A stretch of 64,000 nucleotides of DNA from a virus, in the IMG/VR virus record IMGVR_UViG_3300024518_006178, positions 1 to 64,000 of that record; one strand, written 5' to 3'. Under the pieces are notes generated by a model. The model worked only from the letters and a program-made list of their open reading frames with translations. It did no database searches and had not been told where the DNA came from. A program made the position numbers and the translations under genes. This document shows positions 4,018 through 62,800 of the stretch, piece after piece (positions within the stretch are counted from its first letter, which is position 1; each line of letters opens with the position of its first letter).

Positions 4018-5283
4018 GTGGGAGACCTATTCCCTAATCCATCAAATCCGCCTGATTATCCGGCCACCTTGGATGACATATTTGAAATCCAAGACACGGC
4101 CAATGATGATAATCAGATCCCTCCGTATGAAGACGATCAGATTGCGCAAGCGATTGAGTGGAACCGGGCTATTACCAACCTGGTCGACGTGGTCGACGAT
4201 ATTCGCACCGGGATCATTGCTGGTCAGCTGGATCCAGATACCGGAGACAGTCTCGCTACGCTTCTAGCCCGTCGGTCGAACTTCCTGACAGAAGCCATTA
4301 CTGGATACGATGGCGATCCGAATGGCGGTGGCGCTCCTGCGATTCTCGTGGGCGCGAACCTGGGCACGTGGTTCCGCGAGGAGACTGCGGCAAAATGGTG
4401 GCGCAAGACCGAGACGGCTTGGGAAGACCGAACGATCACGGGCGGTGGCGGTGGCGGCTTTGATTTCACGGAAGGGAAAACTACTGGGTCTCTGAACTAT
4501 ACTCAAGATGTTGTAGGTGCCAAGGCGAGCTTTGCCAGCGTCATGACGCTGAACAACAATCCAAGCGACGGCGAGCAGGTTCGGATTCAAACATACTTCA
4601 ATGATTCCGGAGCTACAGCTTTCGGTCTTGTTAACGTGTACTTTCGGACGGTTTTGGCGACTCCCTTTTTCTGGTCAGCCGTGTTCGGTCAGGGCCAACT
4701 AGAAATTAGGATCGAGGCCAACCTTCAACTGACGCTAGACAACATGATTGCGGGATTAAATGACGTTGCTACGTCGGACGTAGGCACGACCATCGGAGTT
4801 TTCGCGAACACGTGGACGGCCTCGCATTCAGCAGGGCTTGAAGACACGTTGACAGTAGAGCAGGATTTCACCGGCAGCTTTCCAAACGGAAATTCTGCTT
4901 TCATTGAGATTTCTGGATCGAACTGGAGTCCAGGCTCAGGGGTCGCGTATAGCGGCGGCATAGACGACGTGACCGGGTCTACATTCCCTATCACTCTCTC
5001 GCTATTTGCTCTTGAGGTTTCCTCCGCTGGGCCAGATCTTTTTCTCTCATCGGGGTCCGTAAAAACTGGAACGCATACGCCCGAGGTGCTTGTCAGCGTG
5101 GTAGGCCCTGCAATCATTGACGAGCCAAACATCTCGTTCACAGATGTTGTAGATTTTAGTGGCAACACGGTTAGGGCTATCGTTATCCCGGCAACCGAAG
5201 ACATTGTAGACGGTACGGCAACGGTCACGTGGACGTGGGCGGGGAAAACCTTCAAGGCTATCGTAACCAAGACTGTTTTCTAA
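4018..5283 (+). CDS. putative virion structural protein (acidic, beta-rich)
   Basis: 421 aa, Gly/Thr/Asp-rich; GGAGGT RBS before a GTG start. Confidence 0.5.
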   Translation: MGDLFPNPSNPPDYPATLDDIFEIQDTANDDNQIPPYEDDQIAQAIEWNRAITNLVDVVDDIRTGIIAGQLDPDTGDSLATLLARRSNFLTEAITGYDGDPNGGGAPAILVGANLGTWFREETAAKWWRKTETAWEDRTITGGGGGGFDFTEGKTTGSLNYTQDVVGAKASFASVMTLNNNPSDGEQVRIQTYFNDSGATAFGLVNVYFRTVLATPFFWSAVFGQGQLEIRIEANLQLTLDNMIAGLNDVATSDVGTTIGVFANTWTASHSAGLEDTLTVEQDFTGSFPNGNSAFIEISGSNWSPGSGVAYSGGIDDVTGSTFPITLSLFALEVSSAGPDLFLSSGSVKTGTHTPEVLVSVVGPAIIDEPNISFTDVVDFSGNTVRAIVIPATEDIVDGTATVTWTWAGKTFKAIVTKTVF

Positions 5284-15332: not shown

Positions 15333-15623
15333 TTAGCAGTCGAAGTAGATGGTCAGTTTCACCTGCTTGTCGGGCCGGTCGCCACTTGGCAGCTTGACCT
15401 TTGCGCCGCCCGACATGCCAGGGTCATCCCAGAAGCCATTGGATGGGCTCTTCGCGCGCATCTCGTCAACATCGAAGTGGACCTCTTGGCTGAAATCCTT
15501 CTTCTTGATGGCATCCAGGACTCCCTTGTCGACGGGGTTGTTTTCTCCGTCCAGCTTGTCGCTGTCGATATAGCATTGTGTGGGTTCGTAGTCATGAAAG
15601 TGTTCGTCAATTTGAATGATCAT
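15333..15623 (-). CDS. hypothetical protein
   Basis: AAGGAG RBS; overlaps the upstream stop. Confidence 0.6.
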   Translation of the reverse strand: MIIQIDEHFHDYEPTQCYIDSDKLDGENNPVDKGVLDAIKKKDFSQEVHFDVDEMRAKSPSNGFWDDPGMSGGAKVKLPSGDRPDKQVKLTIYFDC

Positions 15624-15840
15624 CGTCTTGCTTCTCCTTTGTCTTCCTCGAATGGTTCCAGCCTTTCACCACGGCCTTGCATAGCCCCATGACCGTGGCC
15701 TCGTCCGCGTCGAAGGGGACGAGTTCATAGGGGCCCTTGGCCCCACATTCGTCGCACGCAACGAAGACGACCCTGCCGCCCTGGAAAGCAGCCTCTTCAG
15801 ACTCACAGAACGGGCAGGGTGCTAAGTCTTCGTCATACAT
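15607..15840 (-). CDS. Lar-family (restriction alleviation-like) zinc-ribbon protein
   Basis: LAPCPFC...V.CDECGAKGP...WN; start reassigned to 15840 after AGGAG. Confidence 0.65.
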   Translation of the reverse strand: MYDEDLAPCPFCESEEAAFQGGRVVFVACDECGAKGPYELVPFDADEATVMGLCKAVVKGWNHSRKTKEKQDDDHSN

Positions 15841-16409
15841 CACAGCTCCTTGACCGGTATCCCCAGTCGTTTGGCCGCAGCCTTGAGGGGCACAGCCCAG
15901 CCCGAGGGCTTGAGGTCCATAATCGAGCCATTCCACGAGAAGGTCATGTAGTAGACCCTGCGCCCCACGGAATTCTTTTCCCAGTGGTGGTTGGCGATAT
16001 GGATCTTCTCAGGGCGGTCCTGGTGCAGCCTGTCCATGTAAAGTTCCACGTCACATGAGGTGATCAGAAAAGAGCCCTTCTCGGAAGAGGTCTCACCCAT
16101 GAAGTTCTCGCCCCTGAACCATACAGGAATATTGGATCGCGCCGTGCCCCAAGTCCACTCGGGCCACGTGCGGATGCTTCTCTTTACCTTGTAGCTGGCA
16201 AGGCAAACCAGCCAATCTTTCTCGAAGATCGGTGTCGGGAATCGGACAACTGCTGAGGAGCAGTCTTTTTCTTTATGTGTGGCGATTGCCGGGGTGCAAT
16301 TGCCATATAGTCTGTGCCGCACCCTGCCGGAGGCCAGCATCACCGTCGCCGAGGTGGCGCTACTGAAGTGTCGGCAGGTTCCGTAATTGGGCTTGGGCCC
16401 GCTGCTCAT
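15840..16409 (-). CDS. hypothetical protein
   Basis: AGGAG RBS before ATG at 16409; N-terminal CRHF...C motif. Confidence 0.55.
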   Translation of the reverse strand: MSSGPKPNYGTCRHFSSATSATVMLASGRVRHRLYGNCTPAIATHKEKDCSSAVVRFPTPIFEKDWLVCLASYKVKRSIRTWPEWTWGTARSNIPVWFRGENFMGETSSEKGSFLITSCDVELYMDRLHQDRPEKIHIANHHWEKNSVGRRVYYMTFSWNGSIMDLKPSGWAVPLKAAAKRLGIPVKEL

Positions 16410-16561
16410 GTCAAAATCTCCTGTCTCTAAGTGCCTGAGGCCTCGCTCCGGCGGGGCCATGCGTTAGGGTCTCTATTGTTCCGACAAGCGCCTGGTATTA
16501 ATCGACTTGGGGGGAATAATATGTTGGACTATGACTGGACGTTATGCCATATCTGGCAAAC

Positions 16562-16604
16562 AAAATAAGGGGGAGGCGCAGTTCGGCCCGCCGCCCCCCC
16601 CTTC
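16562..16604 (-). terminator. intrinsic terminator at the 3' end of the putative ncRNA
   Basis: G-rich/C-rich stem then TTATTTTG on the minus strand. Confidence 0.6.
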
Positions 16605-16609
16605 CTATT

Positions 16610-17141
16610 AGGTTTATCGGTGTATGGTCCGTCTGGGCTCCTCCAGGTGGCTGCTAACCGCCTGCCGTCGACGCCGCGTTACGGGAGAGAAGTTCGTCAA
16701 AGCTCGGAGGCCAAAACACCTGATCACTCTGGGCGTTATCACGGCCATATCATGCCGTTTCTCCTTGCGGGATTGTTTTACCTCTTCTGAGTATCCTTTA
16801 GCATCATAACCACCGTCTGGGCCCGCATCCACGCTCCCTAAGGTGCCAGGGAAAAGGGGTAGCGGGTCGTCAAAGCTCGGGGTTGCACCTTCAAGCCTCA
16901 TTCTTCAAGCCTCAATCAGTCTTCGAGAATCGTCTTCTGTCGTATCGTCTGTGGTAGTTTACGCCTGTCTCATTTTACGCACCTCCCGTCTTGGGCTACT
17001 ACGACTGTCTTCCGTCTTGGTTAGCCGTCTGCTCCCCACGTCGGGTCAGGAGAGTGCTAGCTCGGCGCGACGATTGTCGACTTTTCGCCCGTTAACCGAC
17101 TACCTGATCAAGACTACCGTCCGTGACTGTCTTGTCTCCGT
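16610..17141 (-). ncRNA. putative structured ncRNA with three CCGAGCU...CAGACGG motifs and 12 AGAC copies
   Basis: No convincing ORF; the repeated motif sits in different but base-paired stems; G-U pairs favour the minus strand; ends at a terminator. Confidence 0.55.
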
Positions 17142-17429
17142 TTAGTAGACCTTGATCCCGAATTTCTCGCAGATCTCCGGGGGGAGATCCTCGACAGGGT
17201 ACCAGTTGCACTCGCACCCGTAAACGACTTTACCGGCGTCCAGGTGGATGCACGGGCATACTTCCGGCCCGTTTATCGCGCTGTTGTGGAACTCCTCGCC
17301 CTGGTAGTTCCCGAGCCCTATGAGGACGGACCTATCCTCGTTGAATGCCGCCACGCGGCAGTTTGTCATCTTGACGGTCTTGGGCTTGGGCAGAGCCTGG
17401 TGATCCATGTACTCTTTCACATTGGACAT
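17142..17429 (-). CDS. hypothetical protein
   Basis: GAGGAG RBS before MSNVKEY; CPCI.LD.G.VVYGCECNW motif. Confidence 0.6.
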   Translation of the reverse strand: MSNVKEYMDHQALPKPKTVKMTNCRVAAFNEDRSVLIGLGNYQGEEFHNSAINGPEVCPCIHLDAGKVVYGCECNWYPVEDLPPEICEKFGIKVY

Positions 17430-17457
17430 ATGGGTCTCCTCTGGTGTCCTAAAGCGA

Positions 17458-18024
17458 TTATACCCCCTTTTCCTTGGGTATTTCCTGTAGCCCCATGCCG
17501 TGGGGATCGTACTCCGGCTCCTCTTCTTTGTCGTCGTCGTCGTCATCTTCGTCGTCTCTATCTTCGTCGTCAGCCTCGTCAACCCGCCCTTTTATTCCTT
17601 TTGCGTCGGCCCTCATCTCCTCAACTTTATCGAACTCCATGTCCTCGGGGTACGTCTTCTTGAGCTCCCGGATGAACTGTCGCTTGAGGGCCTCGGCGGT
17701 CCATGCGTCGATGTTTTCCAGGACGGCGGTGAAGACCGGTATGCTGATGGCGTCGTCACCGGAGTCGGCCTCCGGAGGGTACCTCTCAAGGGCGTACTTG
17801 GTGTTGAGCCCCGAGCTTTGCCATGCCATCCGCAGCCTGTCCATGAATGCCGGATCGCCGTCGACCGGGAAATGTATGACCAGGTTGTGGAAGATCTCGT
17901 GCTCATCGGTACCGACCTCACCCCTGTTCATGGGCCTGCACAGCCACGCTATCTGGAGCGGCTTGCCGCCAAGAATGATCTCTTCGTCGTTGATCGGAAC
18001 CCTTCTCATTTCTCCCATTTTCAT
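17458..18024 (-). CDS. hypothetical protein with highly acidic C-terminus
   Basis: AAGGAG RBS; D/E-rich tail. Confidence 0.65.
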   Translation of the reverse strand: MKMGEMRRVPINDEEIILGGKPLQIAWLCRPMNRGEVGTDEHEIFHNLVIHFPVDGDPAFMDRLRMAWQSSGLNTKYALERYPPEADSGDDAISIPVFTAVLENIDAWTAEALKRQFIRELKKTYPEDMEFDKVEEMRADAKGIKGRVDEADDEDRDDEDDDDDDKEEEPEYDPHGMGLQEIPKEKGV

Positions 18025-18110: not shown

Positions 18111-18144
18111 GGCAACGGGTCTCCTTCTTGACCCGTCTTATACC

Positions 18145-21185: not shown

Positions 21186-21715
21186 TTCTTTCTCCCTAAG
21201 GCCATCAGGTAATCCGGAACACCGTCCCGGTCTACCATCGGGCAGACATTTTCGATCATCGAAGGGCGGATACTCTTAACGAGCTTTCCCTTCTCTTTTC
21301 TTATACCGTAAACGTTTGCCATAAAGTCGTCGAGGAATTGCCAGTCAAGCATGTATGTAACGCCAAGGTCTGATATATTCCAGACCACCGCTGACCACGC
21401 CCCGGCCTTGCCGTAGCGGATCAGCTCCTTGATTTGGTGCATCTTCAGGCCGGATTTATTCTTGAGGTCTATAGGTAGGCGCTCTTTGTGTTCCTTGGCC
21501 TCCATACAAATGAAGCGACCGGATCCGACCCAGATGCCCTCGTAGTCGAATCCGGTCCTGGCCAGGTAGACCACCTTGCCGCGCTTTACTGTTGTGGGAA
21601 CTTCTTTCTTGTCGATGTACGCAATGTCCTGATTGGCATACATCATGTGGGTGAGCTCTAGAGTCTTCTCAAAGCCCCTCCCTCGATTGGCGAAGGATGA
21701 TGCTGGTATGCCCAT
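21182..21715 (-). CDS. recU: RecU-family Holliday junction resolvase
   Basis: ANRG..FE, K...P, DY.G, F..EAK, HQ motifs. Confidence 0.75.
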   Translation of the reverse strand: MGIPASSFANRGRGFEKTLELTHMMYANQDIAYIDKKEVPTTVKRGKVVYLARTGFDYEGIWVGSGRFICMEAKEHKERLPIDLKNKSGLKMHQIKELIRYGKAGAWSAVVWNISDLGVTYMLDWQFLDDFMANVYGIRKEKGKLVKSIRPSMIENVCPMVDRDGVPDYLMALGRKK

Positions 21716-26151: not shown

Positions 26152-26606
26152 CCTTGCTCCTTGAGTATGCCCGTAATGTCAGGGGGCTGAAGGTCCTTGG
26201 GCTTGATCCACTTGCCGCCATCATCCTTATACCCGCCTGGGCCGAATTTTTTCAGGTTGTGGCCGTCAACCTCTTCGAGAAGCTTCTCGTCCTTGATGCC
26301 GCAGGCGCTGAGCGTGCCGGTGGTCACGACCGATATGTCGGCGCAACCGTCAGCGACCTCGACAAGGTTGACTTCCTCTTCGGGCATGAATTTCAGGTCG
26401 TCGATCCGAACCGGATAGTGGATGCCGTCTCCGTGCAGCAGCGTTGTTATGCCCAGGCCCTTCCAGATTGTCTCCAGCGCCTCCTCCAGAATAAGGCGAG
26501 CACGAAGGATGCGCGTTTCCTCGTCCGGGACGGTAGGCGTGTCAGGGAGCTCCTGCTCCGCCTTTTCCATGAAATCTTCGACCCGTTTTTGATGTGGTGT
26601 CTGCAC
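26115..26606 (-). CDS. MazG-like/PRA-PH NTP pyrophosphohydrolase
   Basis: LRARLILEE..E, EVADGCAD, EV...NL.K, GKWIKP. Confidence 0.75.
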   Translation of the reverse strand: MQTPHQKRVEDFMEKAEQELPDTPTVPDEETRILRARLILEEALETIWKGLGITTLLHGDGIHYPVRIDDLKFMPEEEVNLVEVADGCADISVVTTGTLSACGIKDEKLLEEVDGHNLKKFGPGGYKDDGGKWIKPKDLQPPDITGILKEQGWSPSTSNSKKQ

Positions 26607-28763: not shown

Positions 28764-28786
28764 TTTCTCCTTATACCCTAACCGGG

Positions 28787-33314: not shown

Positions 33315-33377
33315 AAATTGGCCTCCTTTTGGGTTTCGGCTAAGCTTATACCATAAATAAGAGAGGGTCTGTTTGTA

Positions 33378-62772: not shown

Positions 62773-62800
62773 GAGCGTCCTCCTTCGTCGCTCTTATACC

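Follow-up and report, generated by a model that had tools for sequence, protein, structure and literature searches.

Large structured RNAs are rare in phages, and most of them have no known function. ROOL and GOLLD, two Rfam families, are large ornate RNAs of phages and prophages to which no function is known either. The putative RNA described here resembles them in being a large (about 600 nt) phage non-coding RNA with many helices, in which strictly conserved islands are set among variable helices. However, it matches neither Rfam model even at E<=10, no tRNA genes lie next to it, its family is very small, nothing suggests a multimeric assembly, and its overall fold stability is ordinary. 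An identical short motif repeated on hairpins, with surrounding helices that vary, also recalls the CsrB, RsmY and RsmZ sponges and the bulged helices of HIV TAR and the MS2 operator but, unlike CsrB, RsmY and RsmZ, the present RNA has two sites only, and these are asymmetric internal loops (7-9 nt opposite 3 nt) and not GGA hairpin loops. The HK022 put RNAs likewise combine paired hairpin modules with internal loops, a place in an early phage transcript and a position upstream of a terminator. Nevertheless, put is about 70 nt long and made of two adjacent hairpins, whereas the modules described here span 77-122 nt and are more than 100 nt apart, and we know of no sequence similarity between the two. 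Finally, the RNAs of type III toxin-antitoxin systems of the ToxI type (ToxIN, CptIN, TenpIN) present the same succession of repeats, terminator and protein gene, although ToxI is built of tandem 34-45 nt repeats and the period here is about 180 nt.

A long spacer in the early region of two phages

The DNA analysed, a stretch of 64,000 nucleotides that we call the window, belongs to a 76.8-kb IMG/VR virus record with a CheckV completeness of 56%. The phage lineage is an orphan one, myovirus-like and poorly sampled. A tail-sheath protein gene was found on the plus strand of the window, and the minus strand carries a long block of early and replication genes, including those for a DnaD/O-like initiator, a DnaC-like loader, a helicase, a Holliday-junction resolvase, an HNH endonuclease and a Lar-like anti-restriction protein. 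The RNA region sits within this block, with the replication genes 5-9 kb upstream, and is placed between two uncharacterized minus-strand genes in the order 188-aa gene, 95-aa gene, long spacer, terminator, 189-aa gene (Table 1). Searches of Pfam, PHROG, PADLOC and NCBIfam yielded no match for the 95-aa protein, whose family has about 10 known members, all of them metagenomic; its invariant residues (H48, C60, H62 and D64) may form a metal site, and a structure model with a pLDDT of 43 was discarded. The 189-aa protein had no match in Pfam, PHROGs, PADLOC or NCBIfam, and carries the invariant motifs TWPEWTWG and WFRG. Its model (pLDDT 75) presents an N-terminal Ig-like beta-sandwich followed by a C-terminal alpha-beta-beta-beta-alpha domain; the fold searches reached at best a Z of about 5, with Ig-like beta-sandwiches, and of 4.6-4.9, with small alpha/beta domains, all below a meaningful level. 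A protein atlas search gave nothing usable for this protein, and its matches to two very long repeat proteins (P0014 and P0015) look spurious. The Lar-like gene follows just downstream and has no homologue at the equivalent place in the second phage described below; the neighbourhood that includes it may be a host-takeover or anti-defence region. Family searches, structure models and fold searches identified no RNA-binding protein among the neighbouring genes.

A protein search disclosed a relative of the 189-aa protein at 60% identity, and the alignment of the two led to one contig of a metagenome collection, SDBT01003752.1 (locus L002). The gene order in L002 is the same as in the window, with homologues of the 188-aa, 95-aa and 189-aa genes (43%, 44% and 41% protein identity, respectively), a long spacer and a terminator, and in the two loci examined the RNA follows the 95-aa gene directly. 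In the window, the non-coding region measures about 580 nt (17141-16558, stop codon through U tract), and the 530 nt given in the initial annotation must be extended to that extent. The intrinsic terminator that had been noted at its end was found, as a G+C-rich hairpin followed by UUAUUUUGUUUG. A simple terminator scan missed it because the loop has 13 nt and the U run is interrupted; the homologous terminator of L002 was detected by that scan.

In both phages, the motif GGTATAAG/T was found upstream of early genes, and it precedes the small gene in the two of them (window 17464, L002 3739). Sites of the form GGTATAA[G/T] lie 20-35 nt upstream of the start codons or ribosome-binding sites of early genes, in many cases shortly behind a terminator. 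All six exact copies of GGTATAAG in the window are on the minus strand, and the enrichment in L002 was significant, with 8 matches at <=1 mismatch against 2.7 expected. This sequence pattern is probably a phage-specific or extended -10 promoter element. Since the L002 copy at 4904 sits, promoter-like, between the terminator and the downstream gene, the RNA would form the end of the upstream transcription unit. On the basis of the sequence, we infer that the minus strand would be transcribed together with the upstream 95-aa gene, starting at the promoter-like GGTATAAT and ending at the RNA's own intrinsic terminator, in a unit made of promoter, small gene, RNA and terminator. Because such a transcript would end at its own terminator, the RNA would be a long 3' untranslated region, or else be released from one by processing.

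Table 1. Position of the features of the putative RNA and its surroundings in the window and in L002.
Feature	Locus	Position	Strand	Remarks
GGTATAA[G/T] sites	window	17457-17464, 18137-18144, 21300-21307, 26226-26233, 28770-28777, 33345-33352, 62793-62800	-	
Promoter-like GGTATAAT	window	17457..17464	-	25 nt upstream of the ATG of the small gene
95-aa gene	window	17142..17432	-	no assigned function; upstream of the RNA; homologous to L002 3772-4056
Whole putative non-coding RNA region	window	16558..17141	-	from the small gene's stop codon to where the U tract of the terminator ends
Module A (degenerate paralogue)	window	17014..17096	-	outer CCGAGCU/AGACGG; inner CUCUCC/GGGGAG; loop AGCA opposite C
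Island UAAACnACCACnGA	window	16948..16961	-	common to L002
Module B	window	16808..16884	-	outer AACC-CCG/CGG-UGGUU; inner CCCGC/GCGGG; apical hairpin
Island CCGUrAUAAC	window	16735..16744	-	common to L002
Module C	window	16619..16720	-	outer GGUGU..UGG..CCG / CGG..CCA..ACACC; inner CUUCUC/GAGGAG
Island GAUAAACC	window	16611..16618	-	between module C and the terminator; L002 about 4669-4676
Terminator hairpin	window	16567..16603	-	12-bp arms, 13-nt loop; U-rich tail to 16558
189-aa gene (P0004)	window	15840..16409	-	no assigned function; downstream of the RNA; homologous to L002 4956-5582
Lar-like restriction-alleviation protein (phrog_599)	window	15607-15936	-	just downstream of the 189-aa gene
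GGTATAA[G/T] sites	L002	1259, 3739, 4904		
Syntenic spacer	L002	4057-4716		about 660 nt; based on motifs in common with the window RNA
Module B	L002	4388-4457		inner CCGAUUCU/AGAAUCGG; outer ACCC/GGGU
Module C	L002	4542-4663		outer GGUGGUGG/CCACCACC with GGUUCU/AGGACC; inner CUUCC/GGAAG; layout as in window module C
Terminator	L002	4681-4708		homologous to that of the window

Conserved islands and the internal loop of modules B and C

The comparison is based on two homologous RNAs, those of the window and L002. Their sequence similarity is near-absent, the best BLASTN match between the spacers being a single exact stretch of 13 nt, and despite this both share short islands in the same order: UAAACnACCACnGA; CUUU(U)GACGACC...GGCCCAG; CCGUrAUAAC; UUUGACGAACUUC...CGGCGU...AGCCCAG; CACC..GAUAAACC; and the terminator. 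The distance between the two UUUGACGA...CCCAG units is 115 nt in the window and 108 nt in L002. Considering that exact islands of 10-13 nt were kept while the flanking proteins are only 41-44% identical, neutral decay is excluded. Moreover, the lengths between anchors differ by 7, 4 and 22 nt, none of them a multiple of three, and thus no reading frame is preserved across the anchors. The initial annotation had treated the region as non-coding and this was borne out, as no peptide is shared between the window and L002 spacers in any of the six frames; a 95-aa ORF that overlaps the RNA region (16901-16614, minus strand) matches no family. The common islands together with the frame-breaking length differences indicate that the element is homologous in both phages, under selection and non-coding, and we consider it very probably a real, conserved, structured RNA.

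The conserved core is an internal loop, CU-UU(U)GACGA(A) opposite CCC-AG, that is present in modules B and C only. In the four modules (B and C of both phages) invariant C-G and U-A pairs (CU...AG) close it on its outer side, and the conserved strands are flanked by helices on both sides. The loop strands of the window modules are UUGACGA (B) and UUGACGAA (C) on the 5' side, and CCC in both on the 3' side. Beyond the inner helix, module C opens into two hairpins and module B ends in a single one, in both phages. The outer helices are wholly different in sequence between modules and between phages, and yet they pair. As for the inner helices, three consecutive pairs of module B changed on both sides between the window and L002, and in module C one pair changed on both sides and another on a single side. 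The distance between the motif halves varies from 41 to 78 nt across modules while the flanking arms stay complementary, which is the signature of a hairpin rather than of a site in duplex DNA. In 4/4 modules, both strands of the loop are adjoined by an inner helix of 5 bp or more, as compared with 7 of the 50 scored chance matches to the pattern (14%). Several helices hold G-U pairs, and read from the opposite strand these would become A-C mismatches; for this reason and because of the orientation of the terminator we placed the RNA on the minus strand.

Minimum-energy folds recovered the module in window B, L002 B and L002 C, and the last of these was the sole module to stand out from shuffled sequence (z -6.1). 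In these folds the second G of GACGA is predicted to pair with the first C of CCC within the loop, and on this model the loop may be a helix with small U-rich and A/AC bulges.

All the repeats described in the initial annotation are present. In the whole window, CCGAGCTTTGACGA occurs exactly twice on the minus strand (16880-16867 and 16707-16694), and so does GCCCAGACGG (16822-16813 and 16638-16629). These repeats are spaced by 173 and 184 nt, and only the 14-nt and 10-nt cores are common to them. The third, shorter copy, CCGAGCT-N27-CAGACGG, is present at 17065-17025 and was the single match in the window to a CCGAGCT...CAGACGG pattern with a gap of 20-50 nt (0.03 expected), a gap range that left out copies B and C, whose gaps are 54 and 65 nt. 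All the inner and outer stems that had been listed are present and pair as proposed, except that the GGUUA arm of copy A (17096-17092) is not adjacent to the rest, since it lies 26 nt upstream of CCGAGCU. That stems of differing sequence remain paired holds true within the locus and also between the two phages. The helix CCGAGCU...CAGACGG, however, is not the conserved core: the CCGAGCU/AGACGG signature is specific to the window's phage, and the L002 modules have different outer helices. Nor are there three equal copies, because the conserved loop is carried by B and C only. Module A is a degenerate paralogue without UUUGACGA/CCC, and all that was found as its counterpart in L002 is a CUUUAGA bulge at about 4225-4265.

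The window RNA also contains 12 copies of AGAC (about 2-3 expected) and 5 of AGACGG (0.2 expected), and the three CCGAGCU strands might be drawn into competing pairs by its additional AAGACGG copies. In L002 the count of AGAC is only weakly raised (6 versus 2.9 expected), and the excess is therefore lineage-specific.

Known families, related sequences and folding

No known RNA family was recognized, in agreement with the initial annotation. With Rfam 15, the whole window gave no match at the gathering score (families such as ROOL, GOLLD, OLE, the riboswitches and the ribozymes included), and at E<=10 the window and L002 yielded only chance-level matches of 10-17 bits. One of these was to RsmY, with 10.5 bits against a gathering score of 57, on the plus strand and outside the RNA. 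The element is thus a candidate new family of phage structured RNA, absent from Rfam.

Two known motifs with some likeness to the loop were considered and rejected. A kink-turn has a three-nucleotide bulge followed by tandem sheared G-A pairs, and needs GA on the non-bulged strand; UUU-GA on the 5' side would be compatible with this, but what faces it is CCC in 4/4 modules. The hammerhead ribozyme is defined by CUGANGA and GAAA cores that join three helices, whereas UUGACGA has a U at the essential C3, its opposite strand is CCC and not GAAA, there is no third helix, and Rfam gave no match. The conserved 8-nt GAUAAACC resembles the handle of E. coli-type I-E CRISPR repeats, AUAAACCG, and equals their G-AUAAACC end. 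This island abuts a stem in the window and is 5 nt from one in L002. An RNA anti-CRISPR of type I-E would show similarity to the complete repeat, hairpin plus handle, of an array of the host; here only the 8 nt of GAUAAACC resemble the handle, and the likeness is probably a coincidence.

Further relatives were sought by sequence and by pattern. BLASTN with the RNA region and tblastn with both flanking proteins found nothing among 50,697 phage records, and scans of the IMG/VR proteins with five single proteins and one three-sequence alignment disclosed no relatives. The exact 23-base module pattern had no match in IMG/VR. A relaxed two-module pattern had 21 matches in all IMG/VR, and a stricter variant (GCCCAG, TTTGACGAA) had 29 in 596 Gb of prokaryote genomes. 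None of these has a second CCCAG behind a paired stem and they are therefore chance matches; most lie visibly in coding sequence, and they were rejected as homologues. A search of the published literature on the loop sequence found only unrelated papers. About eight further contigs encode homologues of the flanking proteins; among these homologues are P0016 (small protein) and P0012 (downstream protein), each with a JGI contig of 23,132 bp as its longest, P0010 (11,026 bp), P0011 (5,969 bp), P0009 (4,384 bp) and P0005 (1,659 bp). The known RNA family consists of two sequences, a number with which a formal covariation statistic is impossible.

At the scale of the whole spacer, the folding energy of the full-length RNA was no better than that of shuffled sequence (z -0.25 for the window, -1.0 for L002), and stems at matched positions in the window and L002 were no commoner than in shuffles. 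From a pairwise alignment guided by the anchors, RNAalifold produced no global structure of use, because the helices fall out of register where the sequence has diverged. A covariance model (R1) built from the two B modules recovered only those two, mis-aligned window module C, missed L002 module C and found no additional copy in the virus record of 76.8 kb. Pairing between the 5' flank of module B and its own apical loop could also give a pseudoknot, of 7 bp in the window, AAGGUGC (16891-16885) with GCACCUU (16846-16840), and of 8 bp in L002, GGAGACCA (4379-4386) with UGGUCUUC (4422-4429), the two sequences being unrelated. Since position-matched stems of at least 7 bp appear in 85% of the shuffles, this candidate pseudoknot is only a lead.

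Possible functions

Our preferred reading, which we advance tentatively, is that the RNA provides paired docking sites for a protein. Modules B and C would be two long irregular hairpins, each with the same interruption (5' CU-UU(U)GACGA, 3' CCC-AG), and two identical, strictly conserved bulged-helix sites within freely varying helices would suit a docking pair for one protein, bound as a dimer or as two copies and of phage or host origin. In that case the RNA, made early in infection, would serve as a scaffold, a decoy or a sponge.

A cis-acting control of transcription is less likely, but has several points in its favor. According to it, module C, possibly with B, would govern the terminator situated about 30 nt downstream. 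The RNA would be acted upon by a ligand, a protein or RNA polymerase itself, in the manner of attenuators or of the HK022 put RNAs, and this would determine the level of read-through into the 189-aa gene and on into the small early genes that follow it. The order and spacing of module C, GAUAAACC and the terminator are indeed kept (29 and 32 nt from CCCAG to the terminator stem in the window and L002, respectively), and the 5' strand of the module C inner helix can pair with the 5' arm of the terminator in both RNAs (CUUCU/GGAAG in the window, CUUCCA/UGGGGG in L002). However, the tracts joined by this alternative pairing are pyrimidine-rich and purine-rich, and stems of this size at matched positions are common in shuffled sequences. 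In addition, the terminator is 150-240 nt from the downstream start codon, with the promoter-like GGTATAAG in between in L002, no riboswitch family was matched, and some 600 nt with two distant modules far exceed the known attenuators. If the two internal loops instead bound a small molecule or ion each, as tandem aptamers comparable to the glycine or NAD+-I riboswitches, it would be understandable that they are identical and strictly conserved in variable helices, and that a terminator follows them. We regard this as improbable, considering that no Rfam riboswitch matched even at E<=10, that the modules are separated by 108-115 nt with other structure between them, that the element follows a gene instead of preceding one, and that the neighbouring genes point to no metabolite.

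The order of repeats, terminator and a gene of about 190 aa, kept in both phages, together with the adjoining Lar-like anti-restriction gene, would also be expected of a type III toxin-antitoxin-like system in which a repeat RNA neutralises the protein encoded just downstream. Nevertheless, the period of 173-184 nt with short conserved cores is not that of tandem 34-45 nt units, and a promoter-like site separates terminator and gene in L002. The downstream protein, moreover, matches no ToxN or AbiE family in Pfam or PADLOC, and as a ToxN, CptN or TenpN it had no match in NCBIfam or PHROG either and no confident fold match; its model, a beta-sandwich plus an alpha/beta domain, has no nuclease match, and a system of this kind is very improbable. 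The spacer could also act as DNA, holding promoters, operators or a replication or packaging signal, or be a functionless internal duplication in decay. Sigma-70 promoters have a -10 hexamer 16-18 bp downstream of the -35 hexamer, and the TTGACG of the core does resemble a -35 box; the excess of AGAC in the window spacer and the replication genes lying upstream would likewise agree with a DNA element. Yet no -10 hexamer was found at a usable distance in any of the four modules, a scan for sigma-70-type promoters on the sense strand inside both spacers found none, the arms stay complementary at varying distances between the motif halves, and the AGAC excess is weak in L002. The survival of exact islands at the protein identities given above excludes neutral decay, and we consider these possibilities taken together distinctly improbable.

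To return to the docking of a protein at the two loops, it might be extended to a new class of large phage non-coding RNA, although we think this quite unlikely. By means of its twin modules the RNA would capture a protein of the host, such as one involved in defence or RNA processing, or would assemble into a hitherto undescribed phage ribonucleoprotein with the small His/Cys protein whose gene immediately precedes it in both loci, and it would be made early, beside anti-restriction and host-takeover genes. Should the RNA be no more than a 3' untranslated region with a part in message stability or in termination, it would be an ordinary regulatory element of a little-sampled phage lineage. 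Each new family of large phage RNA is nonetheless a chance to find RNA-based decoys, scaffolds or regulators, and this one offers a core that is compact and exactly delimited, a pair of identical asymmetric loops open to mutation, to use as bait and to probing. Since a Lar-like anti-restriction gene adjoins the element and the region is an early one, the RNA may plausibly take part in host takeover or in counter-defence.
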